Virus record (IMG/VR): IMGVR_UViG_3300034111_000335
Coordinates: 32,001-96,000 of that record
DNA from: a virus
Direction: 5' to 3' (one strand)
DNA length: 64,000 nucleotides
Shown in pieces: positions 19,264-57,772 of the stretch (within the stretch, counting starts at the first letter, position 1; each line of letters starts with the position of its first letter). Position numbers and translations under genes: made by a program. Below the pieces are notes generated by a model. It ran no database searches. It was not told where the DNA came from and saw only the letters and a program-made list of their open reading frames with translations.

Positions 19264-19267
19264 AACA

Positions 19268-19798: not shown

Positions 19799-19800
19799 CT

Positions 19801-21573: not shown

Positions 21574-21605
21574 CTTGACTTAAAGTTAAAATTAATTTAT
21601 ATTTG
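21574..21605 (+). promoter_or_regulatory. Promoter CTTG-N20-TATATTTG for the tail operon
   Basis: TTG 21575-77 and TATATTTG 21598-605. Confidence 0.8.
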
Positions 21606-21639
21606 TAATAAGCCTTAAATTAACCCAAACTATATACTA

Positions 21640-31430: not shown

Positions 31431-31876
31431 AACAGATGATAAAACGCAAAGATGGATCTTACTCACAACGTGGTTTGTGGGATAACATCCGTGCTAACAA
31501 AGGATCTGGTAAGAAGCCTACAAAAGAAATGCTTAAGCAAGAGACTAAGATTAAAAAAGAAAGTCGCTTAAAGAAAGCATACATGGCTAAGGGAGGAAAC
31601 ATTGCTAAGACTACTAAAGGTCCAGGAGCAAACTATCGTCCTACTAAATCAGGAGCAGGTATGACTCAGAAAGGTGTAATGGCTTATCGTAGAGCAAACC
31701 CTGGATCTAAACTAAGCACTGCTGTTACAGGTAATGTAAAGGCTGGTAGCAAAGCAGCCAATCGTAGAAAGTCTTATTGTGCTAGATCATTAGGTCAGTT
31801 ACGTAGATCTAAACAGTCTACACAGAATGATCCTAATAGCAGAATCAGACAAGCACGTAGACGTTGGAAGTGCTAA
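31427..31876 (+). CDS. Basic phage protein (DUF6321-like)
   Basis: GLWDNIRA module plus GMTQKGV.AYRRANPGSKL...RRKSYCARS...RRRWKC. Confidence 0.7.
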   Translation: MKQMIKRKDGSYSQRGLWDNIRANKGSGKKPTKEMLKQETKIKKESRLKKAYMAKGGNIAKTTKGPGANYRPTKSGAGMTQKGVMAYRRANPGSKLSTAVTGNVKAGSKAANRRKSYCARSLGQLRRSKQSTQNDPNSRIRQARRRWKC

Positions 31877-34646: not shown

Positions 34647-34649
34647 ACC

Positions 34650-36371
34650 ATGCCAATTTCAGCACAACATACCAAATTTGTCTACCCTGACTACATTGAG
34701 TCGCTTCCTGCAGATGACTTAATTAAACTTGCTGTGAAGAAGCAGGAAATGTTTGATGAGGGTAGATCTAAAGTACAACAGAGTATAGACGCTTATGGTA
34801 AGATTCGTAATAGTCTTGTACGAGATGTAGACAAAGAGTACTTTGACAAGAACATGAATAACTTGGTTAAGGCTATTAACCAGAATGCAGGCTTGGACTT
34901 TTCTGTTAAAGGAAATGTAGACTCTGTTCTTAACATAGGAAGACCATTAGAAAATGATGCTACTTTATTAGGTGCAGTAGATTCTGCTAAGACGTACAAC
35001 TCTATGATGGAAGAGTATAAAAAACTTGATCCAAAACTTAAGAGTCCTGTAAACGATTACTTTTATTTTAAAGATATCGCAGCTTGGAAAAACAATGGGG
35101 ACGTAGGTACTAAGTTAAATTACCAAAGTTACAAACCCTATCAAGAAGGAACAGGTAAGAAATGGGGAGAAGCTTTCTCTAAAATTAAGCCTAACATTGA
35201 AACACAATTTGAATTTACCCCTGACGGAAGACGTATTCAAAAAACAGTAGTAAGTAGTGTAGATCAAGGACGTGTTAGAGATGCATATATGTCTATGCTT
35301 ACTCCTGCTGAAATGGAACAGTTGCAAATGGATGCTCAGTATAAGTATCTGAATTCTAATCAAGATGCAATTAAAGGTCAGTATCAAGGACACATGAATG
35401 AAACTCTTCAGTTAAGTAACGCTCAAATTGAAGACCTAGAGAATAGAAAAGTAATTGCTAAACAAAAGAATATTCCTATGGACGATCCAAGAATTCTTGA
35501 GATTGACCGTAACTTGAGTAAAGCTTACATGCAAAGAGATATCTTAGAAGGAAGAGCTTCTAGAGGACTAGCAGATATTCCAGACAATGAAGTAATAAAC
35601 TTCTTACAAGATCAAACTATATTTGATGCAAGTAACGCTTACGCTTATACTCAGGTAGAAAAAGATCTAGATGAGGATCAATATGCTTTGAAAGCTTATG
35701 AGTCTCAATTAGCTATTCAAAAAGAAGTTACACTAGACAGATTAGGACTTAGTGCAAGAAAGAAAGACGAAAAGGTTCCTTTACCTCCAGGAAGTTTTGA
35801 AGTAGATGGTGGATTTATAAAAGACACTGAAAGTGTTTCAGGTAAACCTACAGGTTTGACTCTTAAGAATGACTTGTTGTCTGGAGTTGGTACTAACGAT
35901 TTACAGAAACAACAACAGTTAATGGTTGCTCTTAAGAAAGTTCTTTCTAAGGGAGTAGATGATAAAGGACAAGATATACCTGTAAATGTAAAAGATGCTT
36001 TACTTCGTGCAGTACTTAGTGGAACTTGGGACCCACAAGATGCTAAGGTAATCAAGGCAACTTTTGGAGACGACAATAAGTACAGGAAGACTATGGAAAA
36101 TCTTAAGAGTCTTGCTACTGGCTTATACGATATTCAAGATAGAAATGGTGACATTGTAGATATCAGTCAAGTAAACGCAAGAGACGCAAACATGGGTTCA
36201 GGCTATACCTTAGTTCCCAAGAAAGATAAAGCAGCTGAAGAGTACTACTTAACTGATGCAGGTGGATTTGGTTTTAAATTTGACTTAGAGGAATTAGGAA
36301 GTATGGATGCAATGGCTTTATTTAATGCTCAAGATATTAGAAAAGTTAAACCAGAAACAAATCCAAACTAA
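34650..36371 (+). CDS. Internal/ejected cargo protein
   Basis: Helical 573-aa protein preceding the giant genes; no Cys seen. Confidence 0.6.
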   Translation: MPISAQHTKFVYPDYIESLPADDLIKLAVKKQEMFDEGRSKVQQSIDAYGKIRNSLVRDVDKEYFDKNMNNLVKAINQNAGLDFSVKGNVDSVLNIGRPLENDATLLGAVDSAKTYNSMMEEYKKLDPKLKSPVNDYFYFKDIAAWKNNGDVGTKLNYQSYKPYQEGTGKKWGEAFSKIKPNIETQFEFTPDGRRIQKTVVSSVDQGRVRDAYMSMLTPAEMEQLQMDAQYKYLNSNQDAIKGQYQGHMNETLQLSNAQIEDLENRKVIAKQKNIPMDDPRILEIDRNLSKAYMQRDILEGRASRGLADIPDNEVINFLQDQTIFDASNAYAYTQVEKDLDEDQYALKAYESQLAIQKEVTLDRLGLSARKKDEKVPLPPGSFEVDGGFIKDTESVSGKPTGLTLKNDLLSGVGTNDLQKQQQLMVALKKVLSKGVDDKGQDIPVNVKDALLRAVLSGTWDPQDAKVIKATFGDDNKYRKTMENLKSLATGLYDIQDRNGDIVDISQVNARDANMGSGYTLVPKKDKAAEEYYLTDAGGFGFKFDLEELGSMDAMALFNAQDIRKVKPETNPN

Positions 36372-42334: not shown

Positions 42335-42372
42335 CTATCATAGATAATTAAAGCAAAACTAGATTAACAACT

Positions 42373-42380
42373 TATATTTG
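42373..42380 (+). promoter_or_regulatory. -7 promoter box TATATTTG upstream of the virion RNAP gene
   Basis: Exact box in an intergenic gap, 22 nt before ATG; no -33 TTG. Confidence 0.6.
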
Positions 42381-42402
42381 TAATAATAGCAACTAAAATA
42401 AA

Positions 42403-45400
42403 ATGATTTGTCCTAACTTAAGTGATAGTAAGATACGTGCTGAGTTTACTCACCTTAGTAACCTAGTAGGAGAAGACTTTGCTTATTTCGTATGGAATAG
42501 GAATGGTGGATACCCTCTAGATAAAACTGTGATAAAAATAAAAGGAAAAGAAACAGTAGTTGACAATCCTTTATATGCTCATTTTTTAGACTCTTACAAA
42601 AATGTAAAGCAAGCTACTTTAGCTACTTCTATTTTTTACAGTAAGAAGTTACATAAGAATAATCCTAACTTCAAAGATCTTCCAGTCCAAGAGCAGGCAA
42701 ACATTATACACAACTTTGTACAGGAGAATGAAACTCTAGAGAAAGCTTCTGAAAGAGTAATGAAGTTTATTGCTCAGGGTTTTAAGGCAGAAAGAATCAT
42801 AAGCGAAAATCTACAAAAGGTTGCTTTTGATGAAGCACGTAAGATTGCTAACGGTAGACAGTTGTTAGATTCTTATATGTGGTTTAAGAGTTCTCCTTTA
42901 TCTCAGCACTTAGACTTTGTGAACATGCAGAACAAAGAAGAAAGTTCTTTTGCTACATGGACTAAGTCTGCAATTACTTTATACAAAGGATCTGATTACT
43001 CTGATCTATACCATGAAGGATGGCATGAATTCACACAACGATTCATGACTAAGGAACAAAGGACTGCTTTATACCAAACGGTTAAATCAAGACCTTCTAC
43101 CGCTACTATTAATGGAGTTCAAGTACCTTACTATGCTTTGACTAATCGTCAGATAGAAGAAGTACTTGCAGAAGAATTTAGAAGGTTTGCTTTAAATAAG
43201 TCTAACCCTGAGGTTATCCCTCCAGTAGTAGAGACTCCTGTAAGAAATGTTTTCCAAAGAATTTGGGACTTCCTTACAAGTTTGTTTATAGTAAGCCCAC
43301 AAGAAGTTGCTCAGCAAGATCAAGACGCATTAGTAGAGGGTGTTGTAGGTTTATTTGAGAAACTATATGCTAACCAACTATCTGAGTATAGACCTAATGC
43401 AAGTAACATCTCTGAGAAAGTATTAAATAGAAATAAAGAATTCCAAATTAACTACAAAGCAAAGGACGGAAGAATAATTCCTTTTGGTTACAATGCTTTA
43501 GAGGCTGCTGAAATCTTTAGTGCTATTGACTACTTCTTAGCAGACGCAATGGATAACTTTACAGATGCAGAAGGTAATCCAACTAAGCTAGAGATGTCTT
43601 TCTTAATGGATCCTAAACTTAAGTCTATATATCTACCTAAGTTGTATGAGAGTGCCAGGGATTCTATGTTGCAGTATATCAATGCTTTACAAGGTGAAGT
43701 ACCTACTGCTGATGAAGCTACTGCTGCTGTTTTAAACTCTAGAATCAAAAACTTAAAAGGACTTGTAGTACGTACTGCAGAGAATGATGGTTGGGCAGAG
43801 GTAGTTAAGAATCACCAAAAGAACTCTAAGGGTGGAGTATTCTACTCAGGTAATAACTTAAACACTGCTGACGTAGACAATCGCTTAGATGAAACTAACG
43901 AAGAAAACTTTACTAGGGATAGTAGAAGTTTTGCAAATGCAGAGGATGTAGATCCTATGAGCTTAGCTTCTCCTGAAATTCTACAACTTATTAAGACTCT
44001 TCCTGGAATCTATTATAATAACAAAGGAGAACTTATTACAGCTACAGGTAACTCTTTTGGTTTACCACAAGCAGGAGACTTCCTTAGAAATAAAAACTTA
44101 GTTTTAAATAAGGTAAGTGGAGCCATTAATTATGAGGAAGCTATTCAGAGACTTAGAAACTCTCTAGATATTGCTCCACAATTGCAGAACTTAATCAACA
44201 GATTACCTAATACCTCTGACACACTTTCGTTGGCTCAGATGGCTTTAAAAGCACAATTTATGCAGTTTGCAGCTATGCCTACTGTGGCTCCTTACGAAGT
44301 TAAGTCTAGGATTAAGTCTACAGCTGCTAAAGTGTCTAAGAATAAGGACAGTGTAATGGAGCACGTAACTTTCTTGAACAATACAATGTCTCAAGAAAAA
44401 CTTATTGAACACTTTGATCAGAACTTTGTAACTAACAGACTTCGTAAGTATAGAATAACTGATCCTACAGAAAGTACATTAGCTGTATTTGACTCTGCTG
44501 GAATACTTAGCGACTATGCTGCATACAAAGAAGTAGGCTTTACTTCTGATAAAGCAGTGTTTGAATTCTTAAACGATGCTTTTGGTATCGACTTAGTTAA
44601 TAATAAAAACCCTAACTTACTCTTTAATAAAAAAGGAGAAGTACAGCTTAGTGTAAATCCTATCTTTACTCCTACCAACATAAGAAACATCAATAAGATT
44701 GCAAACAATGCTTTGTTTAAGTTAAATCTTATTTCTATGCTTCCATCAGAAGTAACTGTTCCTACTGTTGGGTCTAATCCTTTGTTGACTTTATCTTCAG
44801 ACATATCTAAGCAACTTAAAGCTCAGATAGACGCACTGCCTAATAATCCAAAGAACAAAGAAATTAAAGAGTACTTAGCTAAACACTTTAAGGCTGCAAC
44901 ACTAGACAACGAAAGAACTTCTGCTTTCTCTACGTTTGAAAAGATTTACAATATCTCTAACTCTGCTTCTTATATTAGTCCTGAGGGTAATTTAGAATAT
45001 GCAATTAGAGAATGGAATCACTTACTAGATACAGTTTCTAAGATCAACAGTGTACAGACTAAGTTTGATCTTACAGGACATTTGAATCCTGAAACAAATA
45101 ATTTTATTGAACACAGTATCATTATGAAGCGGATGTTCCGTGCTGATAATGGTGAAAGGAGACTTACTAATTCAGGAGAGGACGTTGAACTAAGAGTTAC
45201 TAATATGTCTGGTTACACTATAGGAACTACTATGGGAGACAAGACAACTAACCTTACTGGAGATGGAAAACTACTACAAGACTTTATAGCTTTTAAGAAA
45301 GATGCTGTAGTAGAAAATATGAGAGTAGGAGCTAAGAGTAGTTCTTTTGCTACATTCCTAAATGGTAACAAGTTAGACAGAGAGTACTTTCCTTTAGAAG

Positions 45401-48400
45401 AATATAATTTTAAAAACAAAGCAGTATTGTCTTCCTCTTTCATAGCTCAGATGCAACAGTATTTGTACTTTGAAGCTATGCGTATGTTTGATGATAAGGC
45501 TAAGTCCAACAAGAAAGAAATCTTAGGATCTGATTTTATCATATTCAAAGACATGATTCCTGACTCTATTCAAAGTAGAGTTAAGGAAGCTGTGGCTAAT
45601 GCTGAAAGTAAAGCAGCTCTTAAAGGTGCTTTAACAGGAATGTTTGGCATGTCTAGTAACTCTCTTTACGGAGAATTCAAGAATGCTTTAACAGATTACT
45701 TTGCAAACTCTGTACAAACTCTTAGAACTTCTTTTAAAGAAATCTTAAGCAAAGGAGAAAACAAAGACTTAGCTCAACAATTTAACCGACTCTATCCAAA
45801 AAATAGTGGATCAGCGTATACGGATGAAGAGATTGATTCTAATCTTATGCACTTTACAACTAACTATTATGTGCATCAGGTAGAACTACTCCACTTAACT
45901 GTAGGAGATCCTTCTAACTTCCAAATTAAAAACTCAGATTGGAGAGGATTGTTTAAACGCTTAGGTGCTACTATCTCTCCAGGAAAACAACCTAGACTTG
46001 ACTCTCAAGATATAAACTCTTGGAACACTAGTTCTAATGGTAGCCTCTCTAGAGGACTTGAAGAAATTCAAAGAGGTACAGGAAAGTCCAGACAATACGA
46101 TAATAACCTTAACTACGTACAGTACGAAGATGTAAAGACTTTTGACTACTTAGATGAAAGTACAAAAGAAAGCATCAGAGAAAGTATGAGAGAAAACTAC
46201 TTGAGTGCATTAGCTACTGTTAAGGGTGCTCTTACTCCTGAGGACATAAGCAGAGAAACTGCTAAGATTGACAAAAACCTTGATGCTGTATTCGAACAAG
46301 GAAAAGAATCAGATGCTCAGGCTTATGCAGGTTTAGATTTTATTCGTTTCTACCTTAACTCTGTTGGGGAATGGCCTAATGACTTAGAACAAGCATATAA
46401 ACACGAGTTAGAAGTATTCAAGGCAATTAAAAAATATAGACAGTCAAACTCAGATCAAGACAAAGCTGAAGTCTATTCCTTGATTGCAAAAAGTAATCTA
46501 GGTATTTTGACATCTTTAAAGCTTGGATACTATGGTTCTCCTACAGACTTTACTAAATACAACGTATTAGGTAAGTACTCTGTGTTTCCATTAAGTCCTT
46601 CTATGGTTTTTGACACAGACTTAGAAGATGTTATGATGGACTACTTAGACAAAGGTGTAGACTTAGCGACTTTCTCTAGCGGTAATAAAATGGCTCTTCC
46701 TACAAAAGAACTTCCCTACTATGAAAAGAAAGTAGTAAAGGGTAAATCGGAGTATGTAGAAGGAGACAACGGGCAGTTAAAGATTGGTAAAGTAGATCCT
46801 GAAGCCGTAATTAGACTTCCTATTGACGGTCTTCGTAGACAACAGTACATTGCTCCTAAAACAAAGAATGAAGCTACTTTATCTACACAGATGGTTAAAC
46901 TTATCTTTAGTAACTTTTATGTTGGAGGAGATATTAATCCTGCTTATGCTCACCTAGAAGAAAAGATTAACAATCTTCAAGAAGCATTTATTGATAATAT
47001 TAAAGTTATCGTAGATGTAGAGAAAGCAAAAATCTACTCTAAGATTGGTGCTACAGTAGGTGCTGATGGTAACATAACAGGTATCAATACTGCAGACTTT
47101 ACTAGCTGGTTGCATAGTGAGTTTGATAAGAAAGACGTACCTACTTCTGTGTATTCTTTCTTAAGACCTACTGTTAATAATTCTTTTGTATTCTCTGTAG
47201 ATGCAGGAGTACAACGTTCTTTGATAGATCAGATTATTTCTTCTGCTTTATCTAAGCGTGTATTGAGACCTAAGTTATTTGGTGAAGCTTACATACAGTT
47301 AGCTTCTACTGGTTTTAACAAATTAGGTACTCGTATGAAGAAGCCTACTACTTCTCAATTGAAATCTATAGCTAAGGGCTTCAATGTAAGCGGTCTAAGA
47401 GACTATCGTATTGAGAATGGAGTAGTACAGCCTGCGGATGTTTTAATTCCATTTAATCCAAAGAAACACACTCCCCTATTAAACTTAGAGTGGAATGGTG
47501 CACCTATCCAAACACTAGATAGATTAAACCAAGCCTTAGAGGATGATGCTTGGGTAGCAGAACACTCTGCTAAGATTAGTATAGTAGGGGTACGTATTCC
47601 TGTTCAGGGATTAAACTCTATGGAACACTTTAGAGTACGTAGGTTCTTATCTAATGTAGGAGGTCCTGTAATGGTTGTTCCTCCTTCTATTGTAACTAAG
47701 TCTGGATCGGATTTTGACATAGATAAATTGTTTATGTATGAGCCAGAGTTAGACGATAACGGAAACTTAGTATCTAATTCTAGACTAAGTGACCCTGAGT
47801 TTAGAACACAAGTCATAGATAATATCTTGGCAAAGAATGAATTCTTAGCTCTTAGAGCAGATAGTTTACAAACTTTGTTTGCCTCTGCTGACTTTAAAGA
47901 AGCGGGCTTAGTATCTAAAGAAATTGAAACTCTTAAGAAGTTTATAGACGATTTAAAAGAAGCTAAGAATTCTGGAGACCAAGATGCAATTACAGAATTT
48001 AAAGAAAACATTGGTCCGTTAAACATGAAGTTAGGTATTGCTATTGAGAGATTTAAAACTCTTCGTAGTCAAGACCCTAAAGTAGTAGAGATGTTACAGA
48101 ATTTAGTTAGTGCTAATGAAATACTTGCTGATATGAAAGACATTTCAGAGAAAGCTCTTAAGGGTTCTGCTTCTAATAATATGATCTCTGTAATAGCTTC
48201 TGTGTTGTCTGAGCCAAGTATCTTTACAGAATTTACCAAGCCTAACACTAACGTTATTCTTCCTGCTATTGCAGAAGAATATCAAAAACTAAAAGGTAAA
48301 GAGAGTCGTATTTCTTCTAGTGCTATGTTCTTGATTGAAACTTCTGTTAGAATCTTTACAGAGAATAACTTAGGTAAGAAGTCTTTGGGTGTAGATGCTA

Positions 48401-50940
48401 AGACTAACGCTTTGCATAAACTATTCCAACAAACTGGACTTAGATTTAAAAGTAATCCAGAAGAAGTAGACATAAATAAGTTCTACTTACTTAAGTCAAA
48501 CAAGAATAAAAATACTAAAGAGATTGAGTTAGGTGGTTTGTATGACGCTGATGGAGTAAATCTTATATCTGACGTAATCAACGAGTTTATTAACGGTCAC
48601 GTAGATATTGAAAACGAAGACTGGATTAACTTCTTTAACGCAGATAGAGAAAGAACACCTTTAATTCTTCAGATGGTTCTTAACGGTACTCCTGTAGATG
48701 AAGCTATTTTATTGGTTAACCAACCTATCATCCAACATTATATTAGATCTAGTAAGATTACTAAAGTAGGTAAAGCATTAGGACAGAAACCTGCTGACTT
48801 GTTTAAGGACTACATTATTCCTGCACTAAACTTTTTAGGAGAAAAACCAGTCTTTGTAGAAGGTCAGATAGACGAAGCTCTTACTGTAGAAAAGGTTCTT
48901 AGCACACCTAGTATTACAAGTGCTTTATCTGCAGAAAACTTTAACAAAGAAAACTATCCTCCTAACCCTAATGTAATTAGAAGTTCTTACGAAAAGATCA
49001 AAGCTAATAGAAATAGTAAAGAAGGAACTGAAGCACTAAGAGCACAGTTAGCATTTATAACTCAGTACTATGTTGTTAAGCAACAGAACCAAATTTTATT
49101 GTCGTTAACCAGTAACATAGATTTCAACACAGCTAACTATCGTATTAATACAGAATTCTATGCTACTTCTACAGGTATTAATGAAGCGAGAGAAAACTTT
49201 AACAGTGAGGCAATTGATAAAATTCTTACAAACAGTGTTGTTTCTCCATTTAACGTCCTTGAAGCCAATCAATCTGTAGTAGATCAAGTGTGGGACTTCT
49301 TTTCTCTTCCGCTAGTTAAGGATTATTTATATAAAGTTAAGCAAGAGTATGGTAAGTATTGGAGTAGAGACAAGACAGTTAGAAACTTTAACCAACTTAT
49401 GAACTCTATGATGCTGTCTTTCTTTCAGAATATTCCAGAACTTAAACCTTTGTATGCTAAGTATAGTGCTGAATCAGGTCTATTAGATATTAAGTCTGGA
49501 AATAACTTACGTGCTAGGTTTGACAGAATATTTAACAACACAGAAGATCCAAAGATAAAAGCCTTTGCCTCTAATAATATTATCCTAAATAACTTTACTT
49601 CTATCATGGTAGAAGGAACTAGCATGTTCTATCCTGGTATGCTAACTAACGAGAAGGATGTAGACACAGTAAACGCAGGACAAAAAGACTTCTCTGATGG
49701 ACTTAATCATCCTAATCCAGAAGTAAGAGGATTCTTTAGTGATCTAGCTAATGCTGTTTTATTAGGACAAGGATCTAACATTAGGTATCGTTCTATCCAT
49801 AACTTTATTCCTATGGAAGCTCAGACTGAAAGTATGATTGAATTGTCTATTGTTCTTAAAAAGATTAAAGAGTCTATAGATAACCTAGAGACTGCAGAAT
49901 TCTTAAAGGATCTTTTAAATAAGACTACAAAGACTCATGCATCTATCTACTGGCCAAGTAAACAAAACAAAGTAGTAGTTACTAATAAGATGAAAACTTT
50001 CCCTGACTTTAGACAAGTAATAGAAGAGAAGCCTCAGATTACTAGTAACGATGACTTAGATGAAGCTATGATCTATGCACAAGAATCTTCTAGTGATGCT
50101 CCTGAACCTGACTTCAATAGTATGGATGAGGAGTTTATCATAGCTAAGAAGCTTGAGGAAAAGAAAGCAAAGGCAACTGTTCCTCCACAGAAAATTACTA
50201 CTCAATCATCTACTATTGTTAAAATAGATTTCCAGGAAGAACCTACATCAGGATATAAAAATAGAACTATTAAGAATGCAAGTGCTGATGCTACAATAGC
50301 AATAGCCGTTGACTTTAATACAGCTGGAGAGAAACTAACCAAGTCATCTGTAGAAAGCCAGGGTAAGAAATACATAGCCAGAAACCTTGACGAGATGTTT
50401 GTTCCTGTAGATCCGTTTAACGCAAGTAAAGGATATGAGCTCAATGACAAGGCAATATTTAATATGGCAGAAAGTATTGTAGCTGATTTGAACAACGCAA
50501 ATGCCAGGACGCTTAACATAGCCGGTAATGGTATCTACACAATGAAAGGAAAATATCCTCAAGCTTTGTTAGATGGTGCCATGGAACGTTTGCTGGAATA
50601 TGTCACTCTATCTGATAACTTGAAAAACAAGATTGTTTCAGTTAGAAGTGGTGGGCAAACTGGGATAGATGAAGCAGGAGCTAAAGCAGGTATCAAACTG
50701 GGTATTCCTACTACTGTTCTTGCTCCTAAAGGATGGAAATTTAGAAATGAATCTGGTACAGATATATCTAATGAACAAGCATTTAAAGCTAGATTTGTTT
50801 CTACTCAACCATCTACTCTACCTAAAAATCTAACACTTAAGAACGGAGTTTCCTACCCAATAACAGATATAGACATACCCTTACTAGAAAGCTTAGGGTA
50901 TAGTGCAAAAGAAATGAACGAAGTATTTAATAACTGCTAA
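42403..50940 (+). CDS. Virion-packaged DNA-dependent RNA polymerase (crAss-like, single-chain double-psi-barrel) with N-terminal zincin-like and C-terminal SLOG-like domains
   Basis: Catalytic GSDFDIDK (DFDID at 47710-24) preceded by RIPVQG. HEGWH...EEVLAEEF zincin-like motif (43012-26). C-terminal SGGQTGID domain. Confidence 0.9.
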   Translation: MICPNLSDSKIRAEFTHLSNLVGEDFAYFVWNRNGGYPLDKTVIKIKGKETVVDNPLYAHFLDSYKNVKQATLATSIFYSKKLHKNNPNFKDLPVQEQANIIHNFVQENETLEKASERVMKFIAQGFKAERIISENLQKVAFDEARKIANGRQLLDSYMWFKSSPLSQHLDFVNMQNKEESSFATWTKSAITLYKGSDYSDLYHEGWHEFTQRFMTKEQRTALYQTVKSRPSTATINGVQVPYYALTNRQIEEVLAEEFRRFALNKSNPEVIPPVVETPVRNVFQRIWDFLTSLFIVSPQEVAQQDQDALVEGVVGLFEKLYANQLSEYRPNASNISEKVLNRNKEFQINYKAKDGRIIPFGYNALEAAEIFSAIDYFLADAMDNFTDAEGNPTKLEMSFLMDPKLKSIYLPKLYESARDSMLQYINALQGEVPTADEATAAVLNSRIKNLKGLVVRTAENDGWAEVVKNHQKNSKGGVFYSGNNLNTADVDNRLDETNEENFTRDSRSFANAEDVDPMSLASPEILQLIKTLPGIYYNNKGELITATGNSFGLPQAGDFLRNKNLVLNKVSGAINYEEAIQRLRNSLDIAPQLQNLINRLPNTSDTLSLAQMALKAQFMQFAAMPTVAPYEVKSRIKSTAAKVSKNKDSVMEHVTFLNNTMSQEKLIEHFDQNFVTNRLRKYRITDPTESTLAVFDSAGILSDYAAYKEVGFTSDKAVFEFLNDAFGIDLVNNKNPNLLFNKKGEVQLSVNPIFTPTNIRNINKIANNALFKLNLISMLPSEVTVPTVGSNPLLTLSSDISKQLKAQIDALPNNPKNKEIKEYLAKHFKAATLDNERTSAFSTFEKIYNISNSASYISPEGNLEYAIREWNHLLDTVSKINSVQTKFDLTGHLNPETNNFIEHSIIMKRMFRADNGERRLTNSGEDVELRVTNMSGYTIGTTMGDKTTNLTGDGKLLQDFIAFKKDAVVENMRVGAKSSSFATFLNGNKLDREYFPLEEYNFKNKAVLSSSFIAQMQQYLYFEAMRMFDDKAKSNKKEILGSDFIIFKDMIPDSIQSRVKEAVANAESKAALKGALTGMFGMSSNSLYGEFKNALTDYFANSVQTLRTSFKEILSKGENKDLAQQFNRLYPKNSGSAYTDEEIDSNLMHFTTNYYVHQVELLHLTVGDPSNFQIKNSDWRGLFKRLGATISPGKQPRLDSQDINSWNTSSNGSLSRGLEEIQRGTGKSRQYDNNLNYVQYEDVKTFDYLDESTKESIRESMRENYLSALATVKGALTPEDISRETAKIDKNLDAVFEQGKESDAQAYAGLDFIRFYLNSVGEWPNDLEQAYKHELEVFKAIKKYRQSNSDQDKAEVYSLIAKSNLGILTSLKLGYYGSPTDFTKYNVLGKYSVFPLSPSMVFDTDLEDVMMDYLDKGVDLATFSSGNKMALPTKELPYYEKKVVKGKSEYVEGDNGQLKIGKVDPEAVIRLPIDGLRRQQYIAPKTKNEATLSTQMVKLIFSNFYVGGDINPAYAHLEEKINNLQEAFIDNIKVIVDVEKAKIYSKIGATVGADGNITGINTADFTSWLHSEFDKKDVPTSVYSFLRPTVNNSFVFSVDAGVQRSLIDQIISSALSKRVLRPKLFGEAYIQLASTGFNKLGTRMKKPTTSQLKSIAKGFNVSGLRDYRIENGVVQPADVLIPFNPKKHTPLLNLEWNGAPIQTLDRLNQALEDDAWVAEHSAKISIVGVRIPVQGLNSMEHFRVRRFLSNVGGPVMVVPPSIVTKSGSDFDIDKLFMYEPELDDNGNLVSNSRLSDPEFRTQVIDNILAKNEFLALRADSLQTLFASADFKEAGLVSKEIETLKKFIDDLKEAKNSGDQDAITEFKENIGPLNMKLGIAIERFKTLRSQDPKVVEMLQNLVSANEILADMKDISEKALKGSASNNMISVIASVLSEPSIFTEFTKPNTNVILPAIAEEYQKLKGKESRISSSAMFLIETSVRIFTENNLGKKSLGVDAKTNALHKLFQQTGLRFKSNPEEVDINKFYLLKSNKNKNTKEIELGGLYDADGVNLISDVINEFINGHVDIENEDWINFFNADRERTPLILQMVLNGTPVDEAILLVNQPIIQHYIRSSKITKVGKALGQKPADLFKDYIIPALNFLGEKPVFVEGQIDEALTVEKVLSTPSITSALSAENFNKENYPPNPNVIRSSYEKIKANRNSKEGTEALRAQLAFITQYYVVKQQNQILLSLTSNIDFNTANYRINTEFYATSTGINEARENFNSEAIDKILTNSVVSPFNVLEANQSVVDQVWDFFSLPLVKDYLYKVKQEYGKYWSRDKTVRNFNQLMNSMMLSFFQNIPELKPLYAKYSAESGLLDIKSGNNLRARFDRIFNNTEDPKIKAFASNNIILNNFTSIMVEGTSMFYPGMLTNEKDVDTVNAGQKDFSDGLNHPNPEVRGFFSDLANAVLLGQGSNIRYRSIHNFIPMEAQTESMIELSIVLKKIKESIDNLETAEFLKDLLNKTTKTHASIYWPSKQNKVVVTNKMKTFPDFRQVIEEKPQITSNDDLDEAMIYAQESSSDAPEPDFNSMDEEFIIAKKLEEKKAKATVPPQKITTQSSTIVKIDFQEEPTSGYKNRTIKNASADATIAIAVDFNTAGEKLTKSSVESQGKKYIARNLDEMFVPVDPFNASKGYELNDKAIFNMAESIVADLNNANARTLNIAGNGIYTMKGKYPQALLDGAMERLLEYVTLSDNLKNKIVSVRSGGQTGIDEAGAKAGIKLGIPTTVLAPKGWKFRNESGTDISNEQAFKARFVSTQPSTLPKNLTLKNGVSYPITDIDIPLLESLGYSAKEMNEVFNNC
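50198..50817 (+). repeat. 17-nt direct repeats (1 mismatch) bracketing an in-frame domain cassette
   Basis: ctactcaatcatctact (50198-214) and ctactcaaccatctact (50801-817), 603 nt apart, encoding TQSST and TQPST. Confidence 0.7.
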
Positions 50941-50942
50941 AA

Positions 50943-51929
50943 ATGATTTGCCCTAACAAAAATACACCTGAGTGGAAAGCTATATCAAATGCTCATCCTA
51001 CACTAGCATATTACCTGTGGAATAAGTACGAGGGTAATATACCTTCGTACTATACACAATCCGTAGGTAAGGAAGGAGTAACAGAACTGTTTGAATCTAC
51101 TCCTGAGTTAGCTAATATAGGTACACCTCAACAATACTCTCAGTACTTAGATTCTATCTTTCCTGAAAGTAAAGTAAAAGATATTGTTTATCATGGTACT
51201 CATACTAGATTCAATAAGTTTGATAAAAGTTTATCTGGAAGTAAAACAAAAGCCTCTATTAACGGTAAAGGGTTTTTCTTTTCAAACAGTTTAGGTATAG
51301 CACAAGGATATAGACAAAGTTTAGAGCAGTCCAATATTTATAACGATGTTATATTTTATTACTATTTTAAAAGAGATCTGGCTAATAAAAATATTAAAGA
51401 TGTAACTCAAGAAGAGTGGCAAGAAATAGTATTAAATTATTTTGGATCTGAAGACTTAAATGTTCAATATTTACAAAGACAGTCTTTAGATAAAACAAAA
51501 GAACTTTTTGAAAAATTTAAAAATGATAAACAATTTAATACTGTTCAATATGTAGATGAACTTGATTTTTCAGAATATTTAAAAGATGATTCTATAGTTT
51601 ATTCAGCATTATTAGAAGTAAATAATCCTTTGGTTGTTGAAGGAAATAATTACCAAATGCTATCTATTGTTAAAAAAGAAATAGAAAAATTAGAAGAAAA
51701 TAATGATTCTATTATATTTAACAATGTAGAAGATGGAATGTCTGGTAGTTATAGAGGTGTTGCCAATACTTATACAGTATTTGAACCAGAACAAATTCAC
51801 ATACTAGGAAACAAACAAGACATAGAAGGGTTTAAACAATTTGTAAGCAACTCTAACCCTATGACTTCACCAGATATGTCTAACCTAGAAAATACTGAGT
51901 TCGAAGTGATTAAGTGTAGGGAAGATTAA
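50943..51929 (+). CDS. ADP-ribosyltransferase-like (ART-PolyVal-type) cargo protein
   Basis: VYHGT...FNKFD...GKGFFFS...AQGY...VNNPL...DSIIFNNV.D...YTVFEPEQI. N-terminal MICPN module shared with the RNAP. Confidence 0.72.
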   Translation: MICPNKNTPEWKAISNAHPTLAYYLWNKYEGNIPSYYTQSVGKEGVTELFESTPELANIGTPQQYSQYLDSIFPESKVKDIVYHGTHTRFNKFDKSLSGSKTKASINGKGFFFSNSLGIAQGYRQSLEQSNIYNDVIFYYYFKRDLANKNIKDVTQEEWQEIVLNYFGSEDLNVQYLQRQSLDKTKELFEKFKNDKQFNTVQYVDELDFSEYLKDDSIVYSALLEVNNPLVVEGNNYQMLSIVKKEIEKLEENNDSIIFNNVEDGMSGSYRGVANTYTVFEPEQIHILGNKQDIEGFKQFVSNSNPMTSPDMSNLENTEFEVIKCRED

Positions 51930-51937
51930 AAACCAAC

Positions 51938-51945
51938 TATATTTG
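51938..51945 (+). promoter_or_regulatory. -7 promoter box TATATTTG
   Basis: Exact box in the gap before ATG 51986. Confidence 0.6.
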
Positions 51946-51985
51946 TAAGTAAACAAGTAAACAATTTAAATTTAAATAAAACAAG

Positions 51986-54900
51986 ATGTCTAAAGGCTGT
52001 GTTATAAAATATACTAATCCCGTAACAGGGATGAATCAAACTTCTGTACTTGCTTATACTCTATCACAAGTAGGATATAGTAACGAGCAAGCTATAGACT
52101 TAGTTAAGCAAGGAAGTCTATATTCTAAAAAAGATGGATACAATACCTGGCCTAAACCTCTTAACAAGGATAAGAGTAGGTTTGGAAATTTTGTAGAAAT
52201 AGACTCAGACAACTTACTTAGAAACGTAGGTATTGATTCGTTAACCTCCGATCAAGTTAAGTATCTTAGAGCAGCTCAGGATTTATTTGAAGATGTTCAA
52301 GTAAGAATAGATAATCCTATTAATCTTACTACTCTAGTAGAGATGGCAAACTACATTAAAAACAATGGACTTGCCTCTGTAAGTATAGAGATTGTTAATC
52401 CAGAAGCACCAGTATTAGAAAGGATGTACAAAGTATATCCTATACCTTTTACTGAACTAAACATGGTATATCTTTCTAGTTTTATTGAAGGAGAAGTATT
52501 TAATAAACGTCTAGTAAATGGAGAAGAGTCACGTATAGAGTTCTTAAAGAAGTACGTAGACTTTCAAAATCCTGATGTCTATGATACTTTAGTTAAGATT
52601 CTAAACGACCCAGAGACTCCTGACTACGAGAAGTTTGTGATTAAAAAACTTTTACCTATTATAGACTTGATCCCTACAATCGGTTTAGACTTTTTTACAG
52701 GTAAAGACTTACAAAACAGAGATGTAATTCCTATGGGAGAGTATGTTCCTGAACTACATAAAATTAAACTAAATGTATTTGGATTAAAGAATAGAGGACT
52801 AGATTATTCTAGACGTGTTATTCTCCACGAGATTCTACACTCTGTTCTATCATCTACGTTACAAAATCCTACAAGCGAGATAGACAAAGAACTTGTAAAT
52901 AGTCTTAAGCCTATCCTTGCCTACTATCAACAGAAATATTCTACAAAAAAAAGAACAGACACTTACTATGGTTTTAAAGACATACACGAGTTTGTATCAG
53001 AGTTTTTTACTAATCCTGATTTCCGCAACACTCTAGAGTCGGAAGAACCAAACTGGTTTATTAAAATTATAGATGCTATCTTTAAGTTCTTTGGTAAGAA
53101 GTTAAATCTAAATCAAAATCCTAATAGCCTAGAGAATATAGATCTATTGATGGAAAACTTCTTCAATGAGATACTCCTTGCTCAAGATATTAATACTAGT
53201 ATTATATATACTAAGTTTGATTCTATACCCTATACTATGAGTGTGCCTCAAATGCTTGAGATGGATACGTTTGTAGAGGAGAATTCAGACTTCCTTACTC
53301 GTTTAGATGAACTATTACAGGACGAAAATCTAATCAACTGGAGTAAGGTAAGAGATCAAGCAGAGATTCTAGGAGTAAACGTAGGCAGTGTATTAAGAAC
53401 TAAGGACATGTTCGTAGAGATTTCTGCAGCTGAGGCTAAAGAGTCTTTTAAATCTTTAGTAAGTTTCTTCCATGATAGCTCTAAGTACTTAGCAAGTGTT
53501 CGTACTTCTCTTAACAAGATGTCTTCTGATCCTACAATAACCAAAGATCAACTGTTTAGACAAGCTTACCATGCTAAAGAGTTAGGAGAGCAGTATACAA
53601 ACCTAGCACAAAATTATCGTAGAGTTATGGGAGACCTAGGAGCAAACACTATTTTGGGTCAACAGTTGTTAAACTTAGAAGCTACTGCAGATTCTTTGTC
53701 TAAGGCTTATTTTAACAACGCTGTAGAGGCTTTAGCTATTAAGTTGGCAGATGAGTTCGCACCACAGACAAAAGACGCTCAGAAGCGAATCCAAGACAAT
53801 ATAGATAGGTTTAAAGTTTCATTAGCAAGTGCACAAAAACTAGGAAACACTAGACTTATAAAACTTACCGAAGATCGTATTAGGAATGAAGAAGCAAGAA
53901 TGTCTACCCTAGCTACTAAGACTAACTTACTAAAAGCACTTAGAGGTCAGATAAAAGACGTAGGAAACTTCTCTCTTTTCTTAGAGTCAGCAGGATTATC
54001 AGGAAACATTCTTACAGGTACTGTAGGAGGTATGATTGCTAATCAGTTTGATACAGCTAACGTAAAGGCTCAAGCAATGGAAGTTAAATTAAAGAAGATT
54101 GCAGATGAGTTACAAAACCACCTAAAGAGTAAAGGGATGGGAGTAAATACTGCATTCGACTTTGAAAATGTATTTGGACGTTTCATTAAGAAAGTAGAGA
54201 TTGTAGAAAACAAGAATGGAAAAATCTCTAAGAGAGAAACACTAGTTCTGTTGAGTGAGATGGATGAAGTTCGTTACAACAATCTTATAACTAAACTTAA
54301 AGCAGAGTTAAGAGAATTAAAACAAACTAAGGTACAAGACTCTACAGTAAAAGATTTAATCAGAGCTAAAGAAGAAGAGATTCGTAGAACAAGATCTGAG
54401 TTTGAAGTACAGCCTTTTGAAGATATCTACTATCAAATTCAGAACATGCTTAGTGCAGAAGCTAAAGAAGCTAGAGACTTAATCTTTGAAGAGATGAATA
54501 AGATCCAAGTAGGAAGTCTTACAGAAGAAAACTCAGAAGAACAGTTAGATAAATTAGATGACTTAAAAGAAGAACTAGACTTACTAGAATCTGATTACGA
54601 TAAAAACAAAAACTTAAAAGATGAAGCAGGACTTAGAATTGCTGCTAACATTAGAGAATGGAAGAAGAGTAGAGCTGCTGCAGAACTTTATACTTACACT
54701 ATCAGTAAAGAAAACCAAGCACTTTTTGACTCTCAACTAAATTCTAAAAAAACAGCTTACGATAAAGCAGCTGCTGACTATCAACAAGCAGTAGACGACA
54801 ATGCTGATGCTGATACCTTAGACTACAAGAAACAAACAGTAGATTACTATAAGAAACAGTTTGAGTTGTGGAAAGCAAACAACTGCGTAAGAAAAATTGA

Positions 54901-57772
54901 TCCTGAGTTCTATAAACAAAGAAAAAAAATAGTAGATGCAGTTGCTGCTATTCAGTCTAGGTATCCTGTTCCTTCAGGTGTTCGTAAAATGGATGAAGTA
55001 TGGAATGATATATTCGGGGTATTGAAGGGATATAAGAACACAGATAACTTCTACGAAGGTTCTAAGATCGCTTCTCCTAATCCAGATGGAACTCCTTCTA
55101 ATCTCTCTACTCTTGTTAGAGCATTAGAAGAAGAAATAGAAGCAATTAAAACTGCTTACAAGACTGATGTAGATATGTCTAAAGAAGATTCTGACAATCT
55201 CAAGGATCTGTTTTCTTCTTTTGGAGACATCCAAGAAAAGGTCTACACTCCTGATTATGTAAGGGAATACACTAGTAAGTTAAATCTAATTAAAACTTCT
55301 TTAATTGCTCAAAACAATGTAAAGTACCAAGACCAAACTGATGACTCTCTATTAGAGTTAGATGCAACTAAAGAACTTAGAAAGACTGATTGGTACAAAC
55401 AAAACCACAAAAAAGTAAACGTATGGGATGAGAACAATCAGATATGGACTTTATCTGATGAACCTTTATATTTCTGGATGTCTACCGAACCTACAGATAA
55501 AACTTTGATTAGCGATACTTCTCCTTCTTTTAGATGGAATACTATTGCAGTGAACCCTAGATACATTAAACCAGAAGTAAAGAATGTAAAATACAGTAAG
55601 CGTGTTCCTTTACGTACAGACAGAACTGAATATAGAAACAAAGAGTACGATAAATTAGATGCTAAGGAAAAAGAAATTCTTCAGAAGATTACAGATCTTT
55701 ATTTAGATCTTCAGAAAGGAACACCTATGAATCTTAAGAAAGGATTAGAGTTGCCTAGTGTTATGATGGACCCTGTAGAAAGGTCTCTGAAAGATACTAA
55801 TATGGGTACACTTAAATCCAAAATAGGATCTACTTTTCAAGGTATTTGGGATAGAGCTACTTTTGAAGATGACGAAGAAACAGCAAGGACTGAAGAAGGG
55901 GGATCTGTTATACAAAAGGTAAGTAAGAAACTTTATTTAAAATATAATAGACCTATTCCTGCAGATAAAATGAGTCTAAACATTCTTAACAGTATTGGAA
56001 TGTATGGTGCAGACTTAATCAGATTCAAAGAAGCTTATGAAGTAATGCCTTACATCTATGGTATGCAAGACGTATTAAAAGAGTCTTTGCCTGGTACTAA
56101 GATTGAGAAGATGATTAATAACTTGTTTGAACGTAAGTTACAAGGTAAGAATCGTAAGTTCTTAGTAAACAACAAAGCGGGTAGAATGGTAGAGAAAGTA
56201 CTTGATATGTCTTTATCTGTCAACTCTCCTATTGTACTTGCTTACCGTCTTCCTTCTAGTGTAAAAAACTTTATGGCAGGATCTGCTAACATCTTTATAC
56301 AAGCTGGTATATATGGTTTAAGTCGTAAGGAAATTTTTAAGGCTATGGGTAGAAATGCTGTACATATAGCAGACTTGTTTCAGTCAGAAGTAGAAGATGG
56401 TAGAGATTCTGAATACATTGCTCGTATGAGATACTTTAATGTTATGCCAGAAGATCAACTAAGTGAAACAGGACGTAAGTTATTTATTTCTAAGTTAGGC
56501 AAGTATCGTAAGTACAATCCATTTAACTTTCTAGGATTCTTTAGAACCTTTGGTGAATTTGAAATGAGAAGTGCAGTTGCAGAGGCTATGTCTCAGCAGT
56601 TTTTAGTTCCTTTGATAGATAAACCTGAAGGAGTTCCTTTGTTTGAAGCATACGACTTTAAAGACGGAATTCTTGTTCCTAAGGATACGATTGTAGACTT
56701 AGAAGGATTTTCAAAAATAGAACAATACTACAGAGGTAAACTTAACCACGTTAACGCTGCTATCCAAGGTGCTTATGGATCTATGGACAAAGGAGAGTAT
56801 AGTAGATACACTCTTGGTAGAATTATAGGAAACATGAAAGGATGGGTTGCTTATCAAGGTATGAGGAGATTTAAAGTAGGCAGAACTATTAATCCTAGAT
56901 CAGGAGAAGAGTTTCAAGGTTTCTACGTGACAGTAATTCAAGCGCTTAAATTACTTTATCAAACAAACTTCTCATTACCGGCAACTAGAAATCTTATGAC
57001 TCCTGCAGAACGCAGAGAAACAGAAGGTGCAGCTATAGATATGCTTGCATTAGCTTTAATTATGGGAGTATCTGCCTTGCTTAATAGTTTAAGATATGAT
57101 GATGAGGATGATGAAGATATGTATGTAGTGTATTTCTTGCTTTATAACTTGTTATTGATTGAAGACGAGTTAAACAGTTTGAACCCTGTATTTAGTCCTT
57201 TGTCTATTTACCATTCTAGGTTTGAAAACAACGTAGACGGACAAAACTTTGCTCAGTATTACTTGAATAGAAACGTATTACTTCCGTTTGCAGGTGCTAC
57301 AGATGCTGTAAAACTAACTGTAGAAATGCTTAATCCTTTTGACGATGCAAGTCCCTTTGATGAGTATGTTCCTAGGAGTAGAAGTGGTAAGATCTCTAAC
57401 CCTAAAAGATACCCACCAGATCCTACTCTTAAAGGAGATATAGAAATATCTGCTCGTATCCAAAAACTATTTGGATTAAACGCTTCTATAAACTACTTCT
57501 TAAACCCTGAGTATCTGTTTAGAAAGTACGAAAAGTATAACCCTAAGTGGTATGTAAGTAGTTTAGAAGCAGACTTAAGAGGAGAGAAACGTTCTGTAAA
57601 CTCCATAGATAAACAAATAAAATCTATTGAAAGACAAATAGACTACGTAGACGATGTAGATACTAAGGAAAGTCTATTGAATAAAATAGAATCCTTACAG
57701 ATGGAAAGATCAGAGTCTAGAGATAGGACATCTTCTTTAACAGAAATATACTCAGAGACTGGGAGGAAATAA
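51986..57772 (+). CDS. Giant cargo protein with zincin-like metallopeptidase motif
   Basis: 1928 aa. ILHEILH (52826-40) plus HEFVSEFFTNPDF; long coiled coils; hydrophobic segments near the C-terminus. Confidence 0.75.
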   Translation: MSKGCVIKYTNPVTGMNQTSVLAYTLSQVGYSNEQAIDLVKQGSLYSKKDGYNTWPKPLNKDKSRFGNFVEIDSDNLLRNVGIDSLTSDQVKYLRAAQDLFEDVQVRIDNPINLTTLVEMANYIKNNGLASVSIEIVNPEAPVLERMYKVYPIPFTELNMVYLSSFIEGEVFNKRLVNGEESRIEFLKKYVDFQNPDVYDTLVKILNDPETPDYEKFVIKKLLPIIDLIPTIGLDFFTGKDLQNRDVIPMGEYVPELHKIKLNVFGLKNRGLDYSRRVILHEILHSVLSSTLQNPTSEIDKELVNSLKPILAYYQQKYSTKKRTDTYYGFKDIHEFVSEFFTNPDFRNTLESEEPNWFIKIIDAIFKFFGKKLNLNQNPNSLENIDLLMENFFNEILLAQDINTSIIYTKFDSIPYTMSVPQMLEMDTFVEENSDFLTRLDELLQDENLINWSKVRDQAEILGVNVGSVLRTKDMFVEISAAEAKESFKSLVSFFHDSSKYLASVRTSLNKMSSDPTITKDQLFRQAYHAKELGEQYTNLAQNYRRVMGDLGANTILGQQLLNLEATADSLSKAYFNNAVEALAIKLADEFAPQTKDAQKRIQDNIDRFKVSLASAQKLGNTRLIKLTEDRIRNEEARMSTLATKTNLLKALRGQIKDVGNFSLFLESAGLSGNILTGTVGGMIANQFDTANVKAQAMEVKLKKIADELQNHLKSKGMGVNTAFDFENVFGRFIKKVEIVENKNGKISKRETLVLLSEMDEVRYNNLITKLKAELRELKQTKVQDSTVKDLIRAKEEEIRRTRSEFEVQPFEDIYYQIQNMLSAEAKEARDLIFEEMNKIQVGSLTEENSEEQLDKLDDLKEELDLLESDYDKNKNLKDEAGLRIAANIREWKKSRAAAELYTYTISKENQALFDSQLNSKKTAYDKAAADYQQAVDDNADADTLDYKKQTVDYYKKQFELWKANNCVRKIDPEFYKQRKKIVDAVAAIQSRYPVPSGVRKMDEVWNDIFGVLKGYKNTDNFYEGSKIASPNPDGTPSNLSTLVRALEEEIEAIKTAYKTDVDMSKEDSDNLKDLFSSFGDIQEKVYTPDYVREYTSKLNLIKTSLIAQNNVKYQDQTDDSLLELDATKELRKTDWYKQNHKKVNVWDENNQIWTLSDEPLYFWMSTEPTDKTLISDTSPSFRWNTIAVNPRYIKPEVKNVKYSKRVPLRTDRTEYRNKEYDKLDAKEKEILQKITDLYLDLQKGTPMNLKKGLELPSVMMDPVERSLKDTNMGTLKSKIGSTFQGIWDRATFEDDEETARTEEGGSVIQKVSKKLYLKYNRPIPADKMSLNILNSIGMYGADLIRFKEAYEVMPYIYGMQDVLKESLPGTKIEKMINNLFERKLQGKNRKFLVNNKAGRMVEKVLDMSLSVNSPIVLAYRLPSSVKNFMAGSANIFIQAGIYGLSRKEIFKAMGRNAVHIADLFQSEVEDGRDSEYIARMRYFNVMPEDQLSETGRKLFISKLGKYRKYNPFNFLGFFRTFGEFEMRSAVAEAMSQQFLVPLIDKPEGVPLFEAYDFKDGILVPKDTIVDLEGFSKIEQYYRGKLNHVNAAIQGAYGSMDKGEYSRYTLGRIIGNMKGWVAYQGMRRFKVGRTINPRSGEEFQGFYVTVIQALKLLYQTNFSLPATRNLMTPAERRETEGAAIDMLALALIMGVSALLNSLRYDDEDDEDMYVVYFLLYNLLLIEDELNSLNPVFSPLSIYHSRFENNVDGQNFAQYYLNRNVLLPFAGATDAVKLTVEMLNPFDDASPFDEYVPRSRSGKISNPKRYPPDPTLKGDIEISARIQKLFGLNASINYFLNPEYLFRKYEKYNPKWYVSSLEADLRGEKRSVNSIDKQIKSIERQIDYVDDVDTKESLLNKIESLQMERSESRDRTSSLTEIYSETGRK

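Follow-up and report, generated by a model that had tools for sequence, protein, structure and literature searches.

Paired terminal cysteines in the giant cargo proteins of a crAss-like phage and a candidate disulfide-linked ejection chain

IMG/VR record IMGVR_UViG_3300034111_000335 is a complete virus genome of 118,886 bases with terminal repeats, and it carries a crass-type major capsid gene (Pfam Crass_capsid, 2.4e-31) and a muzzle gene (Pfam crAss_MUZ, 7.9e-39). Within the 64,000-nucleotide stretch of it that we analyzed (positions 32,001 to 96,000 of the record, here called the window, whose own coordinates are used below), four consecutive genes encode a 1987-residue protein (p1987), a virion RNA polymerase (RNAP), a small ADP-ribosyltransferase protein (the ART link), and a 1928-residue protein (p1928), which are nearly free of Cys except at the ends that abut in gene order. 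The same rule is found among relatives across the Crassvirales. We propose that the facing residues form disulfides, from the Cys in the C-terminal region of protein n to Cys3–5 of protein n+1, and that the cargo would be ejected as one near-linear thread, a reading to which we give a probability of about 0.65. The four genes most likely encode packed and ejected cargo, since homologous cargo proteins have been detected by mass spectrometry in virions of PhiCrAss001 (Bayfield 2023) and of phi14:2 (phi14:2 record annotation). The chain genes and their parts are as follows.

36371..42334, + strand: p1987, 1987 amino acids (aa), first chain member; its only Cys is residue 1979, and its N-terminus has none
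42403..50940, + strand: RNAP, 2845 aa; exactly two Cys, Cys3 and Cys2845
42403..42537, + strand: RNAP N-connector module, approximately residues 1–45 (MICPN..AYFVWN..G), defined by alignment A2 and a hidden Markov model (HMM)
50788..50937, + strand: RNAP C-terminal tail ending in Cys (..SYPI..LLESLGYSAKEMNEVFNNC), homologous to a tail in the surveyed locus L073
50943..51929, + strand: ART link, 328 aa; N-connector (residues 1–45), ART-PolyVal domain, and Cys tail
51183–51800, + strand: predicted ART-PolyVal domain (Pfam PF18760), residues 81–286 of the ART link
51986..57772, + strand: p1928, 1928 aa, last chain member; Cys5 and internal Cys967, and no Cys at its C-terminus

Terminal cysteines of the four cargo proteins

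The four proteins (1987, 2845, 328, and 1928 aa) hold 7 Cys in 7088 residues. Six of these sit at ends that abut in gene order, either within residues 3–5 or 0–8 residues before the C-terminus, and no Cys is found at the N-terminus of p1987 or the C-terminus of p1928, the two outermost ends. In p1987, Cys1979 (codon 42305–42307) is followed by 8 residues (..EVKDACKGDLDDIA). The RNAP has Cys3 in the sequence MICPN (42409–42411) and Cys2845 as its very last residue (..EVFNNC, 50935–50937), and the ART link has Cys3, again in MICPN (50949–50951), and Cys325 of 328 (..EVIKCRED, 51915–51917). Finally, p1928 has Cys5 in MSKGC (51998–52000) and the seventh residue, Cys967 (54884–54886), which is internal and non-conserved; the homologue in the close relative L058 contains Cys5 only. 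The nearest relative of p1987, in locus L090, has a single Cys 18 residues before its end, within a homologous tail. The Cys counts for all four proteins had been put forward in a first-pass annotation made from the sequence, and all hold on recounting and checking of the codons.

The first 6 and last 10 residues of the four proteins make up 0.9% of the 7088 residues, and the probability that at least 6 of 7 Cys would fall there by random placement is 3.8e-12, a figure in which the two MICPN Cys are not independent, as they belong to a duplicated module. This agrees with the earlier statement that 6 of the 7 Cys lie at abutting termini and that the free chain ends lack them. The frequency of Cys is 0.82% in the whole genome, 0.099% in the four chain proteins, and 0.99% in the rest of the genome. 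Five of the 123 open reading frames (ORFs) of the genome have a Cys within the first 6 residues: those of three cargo proteins and of two tail proteins rich in Cys. The two MICPN N-termini had been described as alike; they are 37% identical over 60 aa and form part of a wider N-terminal module. The C-terminal signature EVxx(x)C proposed at the same time is indeed common to the three C-tails of the window, yet it is limited to them; in the C-tails of relatives the Cys alone is invariant.

Terminal Cys are also seen in other proteins of this genome. Three Cys-rich tail-region proteins with 8, 12, and 16 Cys (window 18603–21480) have termini ..ESDC, MTNCC....CTCCP, and MSTCLDC, and may be counterparts of the disulfide-stapled tail parts of PhiCrAss001. 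Two small proteins of 149 and 168 aa (window 31427–31876 and genome C1:28527–29033, respectively) end in Cys.

The terminal-cysteine rule among relatives

Relatives were surveyed in two sets. Set 1 comprises the best 80 IMG/VR loci found by homology to the ART protein. Because the rule had been found in set 1, an independent set 2 was drawn with an alignment of the RNAP catalytic motif, which is unrelated to the termini, as the query; 4 of its 80 loci were dropped for DNA shared with set 1, leaving 76 loci that share none. ORFs were called on the + strand of each locus from the first ATG after a stop, at a length of at least 100 aa, with overlapping shorter ORFs dropped, so that chain partners below 100 aa are missed (2 cases). 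A Cys was counted as terminal when it lay within the first 6 or last 10 residues, a definition that misses Cys located 12–19 residues from an end (4 cases).

In set 1, 133 distinct ORFs reach a length of 1000 aa or more; they contain 218 Cys in 304,453 residues, 137 of these Cys being terminal, and 88 of the ORFs lack internal Cys. Of 89 complete N-termini, 72 carry a Cys within the first 6 residues, in 48 cases at position 3. When adjacent-gene junctions are counted after deduplication, Cys is found on both sides in 80, on the C-side only in 24, on the N-side only in 28, and on neither side in 134 (odds ratio 16, p 1.4e-22). In set 2, terminal positions account for 228 of the 257 Cys in 178 distinct large ORFs (419,775 residues), and the corresponding junction counts are 122, 3, 4, and 27. 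Together, the two sets yield 147 distinct chains with 2 to 5 members each; among the 97 complete last members, a single one ends in a Cys that has no partner. Both terminal Cys are present in 58 of the 64 complete RNAP ORFs, and 50 of the 64 have exactly two Cys, one per end.

Cultured and reference crassviruses follow the same pattern. In phi14:2, the only Cys of g067 (1797 aa) is its last residue; the g066 RNAP (2180 aa) has Cys3 and Cys2179 only; and g065 (1421 aa) has Cys3 only. The PhiCrAss001 protein gp47 (2341 aa) has one Cys, located 2 residues before its end, gp50 has Cys5, a Cys 8 residues before its end, and one internal Cys, and gp49 has Cys5 only. In p-crAssphage, gp45 ends in ..SFSCM and gp44 begins with MSCGN. 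The rule is likewise kept in crAss002 and in the gut crassviruses cr108_1, cr52_1, cr109_1, and cr4_1. The annotated start of crAss002 gp33 (L082, MN917146.1; locus 16203 onward) lies 32 codons 5′ of an in-frame MSC, and judging from the terminal-Cys rule, the ATG of this MSC is probably the real start. As in the window, the cargo of PhiCrAss001, phi14:2, and p-crAssphage combines a homologous DFDxD RNAP and a zincin-motif partner with the terminal-Cys rule; the fourth member (the 328-aa ART link) and the two MICPN modules set the window apart from these cultured sets. Set 1, set 2, and the reference crassviruses all bear out the terminal enrichment and the gene-order rule that the first-pass annotation had proposed to test across Crassvirales. 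A side case is L074, a complete record of 154,840 bases, which has a relative of the ART-PolyVal protein, no Crass_capsid match, and no terminal-Cys junction, so that the ART domain also occurs outside the terminal-Cys system.

Gene fusions and splits provide a further view of the rule. L058 has its ART domain joined to the RNAP; the resulting 2925-aa protein has one Cys, the last residue, and the next protein starts with MPKFC. Among relatives, the ART domain is found fused to the C-terminus of the RNAP in some cases and to the start of the following protein in others. Five RNAPs lack the N-terminal Cys, and four of them, at 4378–4798 aa, are fused to the upstream protein; one upstream-fused RNAP has a single Cys in 4665 aa. 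Conversely, small pieces of 128–330 aa that stand between giant genes have Cys at both ends, like the ART link of the window. As read from these sequences, fusion loses and splitting gains the facing Cys pair, as a linking function would predict.

Approximately 16 of the 24 C-side-only junctions of set 1 are followed by one inserted gene and then by a protein starting with MxC. The inserted junction genes encode 117–226 aa. One of the 17 inserted ORFs is an artifact (the L014 RNAP itself), and a Pfam scan covered 9 of the 17, identifying four GIY-YIG homing endonucleases, three ferritin-like proteins, and two DUF5856 proteins.

L069:9201–9866, L069:10648–11292, L031:10980–11654, and L054:1715–2257: GIY-YIG/NUMOD3 homing-endonuclease genes at cargo junctions (Pfam)
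L009:10727–11218, L016:9507–9998, and L049:9016–9513: ferritin-like genes at Cys/MxC junctions (Pfam PF00210, E 7e-14 to 3e-24)
L025:10782–11135 and L059:8553–8963: DUF5856 genes at Cys/MxC junctions (Pfam)

ORFs similar to the junction GIY-YIG genes are present in L015, L046, L066, L070, and L075, and a "GII..C" tail together with an "MxCxIxYKGKxY" N-terminus recurs beside GIY-YIG genes, as if the elements moved jointly. The junction ORFs of L022 and L037 are ferritin-like by N-terminal likeness only. A connection of the junction ferritin-like and DUF5856 genes to redox chemistry or iron is speculation. Other homing-endonuclease-split phage genes offer a parallel, in that breaks sometimes carry a GIY-YIG gene, as they do at crassvirus junctions with Cys on both sides.

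The proposed thread and its alternatives

The facing ends carry more than the Cys. The N-connector is a module of ∼45 aa with the consensus MxCPNxxxxE[WF]K..A...W (alignment A2), and when its HMM was run over all ORFs of the surveyed loci, 39 of 39 matches were N-terminal. Across 34 aligned C-tails, no column but that of the Cys is invariant, and the mean column identity is 15%. Alignments A1 and A2 cover 34 of 35 junctions (L051 was left out, and L014 was dropped as well), and alignment A3, of the RNAP core, covers 30 of 53 segments. Recognizable C-tail types go with particular N-terminal types; the L073 tail that is homologous to the RNAP tail of the window stands ahead of the same kind of N-connector. 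Among the 51 RNAPs that have both neighbors present, upstream-tail similarity correlates with that of the RNAP N-terminus (r 0.64; 0.51 once similarity of the RNAP core is taken out), and the RNAP tail correlates with the downstream N-terminus (r 0.59; 0.56 after the same correction). Non-facing combinations, including the two ends of one RNAP, give r of 0.26–0.30 (0.11–0.20 with the core removed). Because the Cys is conserved order-wide at divergent flanks, is lost on fusion, is present at new breaks, and lies in co-varying peptides, the sequences support strong selection on the terminal Cys as facing pairs.

An AlphaFold2 model of the N-connector (predicted local distance difference test, pLDDT, 73.6) puts the Cys on a short, extended stretch at the N-terminus that leads into a helical hairpin, with predicted helices at residues 9–17, 19–28, and 46–52. 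Comparison of the N-connector profile with PDB sequences returned chance-level rows only (best E 0.025), and the 34 N-connector members share nothing in Pfam. Complex prediction with the last 50 aa of the RNAP (A1) and the first 60 aa of the ART link (A2) scored 0.19 and 0.22, below the mark of 0.32, which speaks neither for nor against binding.

The nearest precedent for the link itself comes from the cyanopodophage A4 (Anabaena phage A-4L, Saffermanviridae). In its structure, solved by cryo-electron microscopy, the C-terminal helix of gp27 is inserted in gp26 and held by a Cys1715–Cys5 disulfide, which stabilizes a "mortise-and-tenon" gp27/gp26 ring around which the DNA is spooled (PNAS 2025, PMC12002296). 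In the A4 genome, adjacent genes encode gp27 (1717 aa) and gp26 (1114 aa), which have one Cys each, 2 residues before the C-terminus in gp27 (..NPCQF) and at residue 5 in gp26 (MSKHC). The window shares with A4 this signature of facing terminal Cys in adjacent-gene proteins that are otherwise Cys-free: facing terminal Cys are found at all three junctions of the chain, and other Cys are nearly absent from its proteins. A4 differs in that it has a single link in a pentameric core, without an RNAP, a multi-link chain, or small plug-in links, and the window cargo has no BLAST or phmmer match to A4 gp26 or gp27 at E 0.01. At the level of sequence, the likeness lies in the signature, not in the family. 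Since the A4 gp27–gp26 disulfide is solved, and since the PhiCrAss001 virion has disulfides in its tail and portal vertex (Bayfield 2023), we take a head-to-tail disulfide as the best reading of the facing terminal Cys and as likely.

The first-pass annotation was not aware of any description of such an arrangement. This holds for Crassvirales, for which we found none, and does not hold for phages at large, as one such bond is published for A4; the proposed chain would be the multi-link form of a bond known from one unrelated phage. In the available text of Bayfield 2023, supplements being outside the scope, Cys and disulfides are mentioned only for the tail, the portal-vertex bonds, and methods. 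A term search of the Drobysheva preprint returned no occurrence of cysteine or disulfide, a search listing of the polyvalent-protein paper of 2017 gave zero occurrences of "cysteine", and a full-text literature search, which did not extend to supplements, found nothing on the terminal Cys of crassvirus cargo.

Schitoviridae are known to suppress Cys in their ejected proteins, an effect described as strong (0.00075% in gp71 homologues) and linked to passage through the periplasm (DEV paper), so that the retention of Cys at the facing ends only is the unusual part of the present system. Schitoviridae such as N4 and DEV share with crassviruses a giant ejected RNAP that is thought to cross the tail unfolded, and Cys suppression. 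Their RNAP, however, is one polypeptide of ∼3500 aa with no terminal Cys reported, whereas crassviruses have several polypeptides with Cys only at the breaks.

In the proposed chain, stray Cys would have been purged from the cargo, as in other phage proteins that leave the capsid via the tail, and a single Cys would remain wherever an end faces its neighbor in the chain. Within the virion, the C-terminal-region Cys of each protein would bond to Cys3–5 of its successor, giving a thread in the order p1987–RNAP–ART–p1928, that is, the first giant protein, the virion RNAP, the ADP-ribosyltransferase link, and the zincin-motif RNAP-associated protein. Such a thread would be a covalent counterpart to the giant polyprotein that some relatives encode as a single chain. 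The amphipathic C-tail and the ∼45-aa N-terminal module would probably bring the right ends together, and the bond would form after assembly or lysis, keep the proteins joined and in their order throughout ejection, and be reduced in the host cytoplasm. Effects of the chain on stoichiometry, ejection order, and reductive release, which the first-pass annotation had put forward, are a plausible inference. Parallels of principle exist elsewhere. The chains of AB toxins are held by one disulfide until cytosolic reduction, and there too a cargo chain passes a narrow channel on a single disulfide, as proposed here, with no homology and in a different biology. In modular polyketide synthases and nonribosomal peptide synthetases, docking domains made of short C- and N-terminal partner peptides fix the order of consecutive gene products; the likeness is in the ordering peptides (non-covalent docking being only proposed here), again without homology.

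Several observations weigh against the disulfide thread. Adjacency on DNA could be a partial source of the co-variation between facing peptides. Because two junctions of the window use the same MICPN module, pairing may lack specificity and the order may not be strict. Giant proteins in L006, L059, and L073 have an N-terminal Cys and no detectable upstream partner, and no N-terminal-Cys partner is found near the 149- and 168-aa proteins of this genome that end in Cys. Several p1987-type tails bear their Cys 8–19 residues before the end rather than at the tip, and p-crAssphage gp47 and gp48 and crAss002 gp30 bear a Cys near a basic C-terminus with no evident partner. The habitat of gut crassviruses is anoxic, and an oxidation step is hard to place there. 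Lastly, the RNAP-associated cargo is without ordered density in the PhiCrAss001 maps (Bayfield 2023), a point that also tells against the first of the alternatives considered next.

The same disulfides might do no more than hold a folded internal core (a pre-ejectosome) in place as static staples, organizing cargo and DNA inside the capsid, with no thread and no ejection order. The A4 bond stabilizes just such a ring with spooled DNA, and the present sequence data do not bear on ejection. Against this, the 128–330-aa links with Cys at both ends and the fused polyproteins that replace Cys pairs fit a linear string better, and the virion RNAP of N4 has been described as beads on a string for ejection (N4 2026 paper); we consider a purely static role unlikely, if by no means far-fetched. 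A closed arrangement, in which the Cys bond inside one protein or join like ends (an RNAP ring formed by an N-to-C disulfide, or dimers of the outer proteins), would account for the 50 of 64 RNAPs with exactly one Cys per end. It is hard to reconcile with the two-member systems that have one Cys per protein (p-crAssphage gp45/gp44 and A4 gp27/gp26, the latter a hetero pair in its structure), with an RNAP N-terminus that co-varies with the upstream tail (r 0.64) and not with its own C-tail (r 0.30), or with the loss of exactly two facing Cys upon fusion with the upstream protein, and we judge it very improbable.

Other chemistry at the same residues, namely a shared metal site, a thioester or ligation, or attachment to the portal, capsid, or DNA, would suit the presence of one Cys per end, the dangling terminal Cys that lack a partner, and the five loci with ferritin-like genes at a junction. 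The terminal Cys has no conserved His, Asp, or second Cys beside it, on which ground a metal site was rejected. Native-ligation-like chemistry is disfavored by the position of the N-terminal Cys, which is at 3–6 rather than 1 in 79 of the 80 paired junctions of set 1 (at 2 in the remaining one), and no Hint/intein or other catalytic family is found at the ends; the adjacent-gene pairing rule would not be expected for attachment to a third partner. We give this group of explanations little chance. A split intein in particular was rejected, with only 0–8 residues after the C-terminal Cys, 1–5 before the N-terminal one, and no Hint family at E 0.01; split inteins need intein halves of tens of residues with the Hint fold, a catalytic Cys1, and a terminal Asn followed by Cys+1, the crassvirus terminal stretches are far shorter, and no peptide bond is required of them.

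It is scarcely credible to us that the Cys have no present function, as a by-product of gene splitting by homing-endonuclease cassettes or as part of a nucleotide signal at gene boundaries (coupling or bypass). GIY-YIG genes do lie exactly at several junctions, and the connector pairs look modular. But PhiCrAss001 gp47 lies on the strand opposite to gp50 and gp49, which excludes explanations that need the partners on one mRNA; junction spacing in set 1 varies from −13 to +68 bases with the Cys 0–8 residues before the stop or at residues 2–6; TGT and TGC are both used; promoter-like motifs lie in two of the gaps; and the Cys is kept at 15% background identity while other Cys are purged. The opposite strands, the variable spacing, and the 117–226-aa genes at junctions led us to reject translational bypass or coupling, and stop-codon recoding was rejected because the gene boundaries are not in frame.

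Locus features and significance

Beyond their termini, the chain proteins have recognizable motifs. The RNAP has the catalytic motif DFDID at residue 1770 (47710–47724), HEGWH at residue 204, and a SLOG/cpYpsA-like domain near the C-terminus, and it shows weak but consistent similarity to PhiCrAss001 gp50, phi14:2 g066, crAss002 gp33, and p-crAssphage gp44. The ART-PolyVal assignment is predicted from sequence with 42.9 bits against a gathering cutoff of 31.2 (Pfam PF18760). In p1928, a relative of phi14:2 g065 and PhiCrAss001 gp49, there is a HEILH zincin motif at residue 281 (52826–52840). An AlphaFold2 model of its N-terminal 330 aa, built from 6 sequences (pLDDT 78.6), has no Foldseek match in the PDB at E 0.001, A4 gp26 being absent; the weak rows above that threshold are zincin-type peptidases and unrelated proteins. 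PHROGs assigns no function to any of the four chain proteins. A search for the thioredoxin family, the one redox family looked for, found none in the phage genome, which is neutral for the disulfide reading.

32172..36371, + strand: two upstream proteins of 824 and 573 aa with zero Cys, in the position of the PhiCrAss001 C1/C2 cargo proteins
21598–21608, 42373–42383, and 51938–51948, + strand: promoter-like 11-mer TATATTTGTAA, exact matches

The 824- and 573-aa proteins have no family match, so their likeness to C1/C2 rests on position. The 11-mer occurs 3 times in the window, against 0.13 expected, each time 30–48 bases 5′ of a + strand start codon, and we take it to fit the Bacteroidota TAnnTTTG promoter element. 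One copy (42373–42383) is in the 68-base gap before the RNAP gene and another (51938–51948) precedes the p1928 gene, which suggests that chain members have their own expression signals.

The PhiCrAss001 atlas (Bayfield 2023) leaves as an open question how ∼5 MDa of cargo is packed, how three RNAP-associated proteins are kept together, and how they pass the tail in order, and the 2026 N4 paper calls the crassvirus ejection proteins unresolved. The terminal-Cys rule holds in every crassvirus family examined, including p-crAssphage, and it yields a concrete hypothesis that can be tested cheaply on cultured phages: that the cargo is one covalent string. It is also of use in annotation, as the MxC rule places start codons (e.g., crAss002 gp33), flags small genes of the ejected set, and separates gene fusions from splits. 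More tentatively, and at somewhat less than even odds, we suggest that Crassvirales eject a multi-subunit RNAP and effectors as a disulfide-concatenated thread whose order is set by modular, mobile pairs of cognate C-tails and N-connectors, sometimes accompanied by a homing endonuclease, so that a split or new effector such as the 328-aa ART link could be plugged in without losing co-delivery, and the thread would fall apart on reduction in the cytoplasm. If the disulfide thread is real, the single structural observation in A4 would become a general principle for ejected phage proteins.

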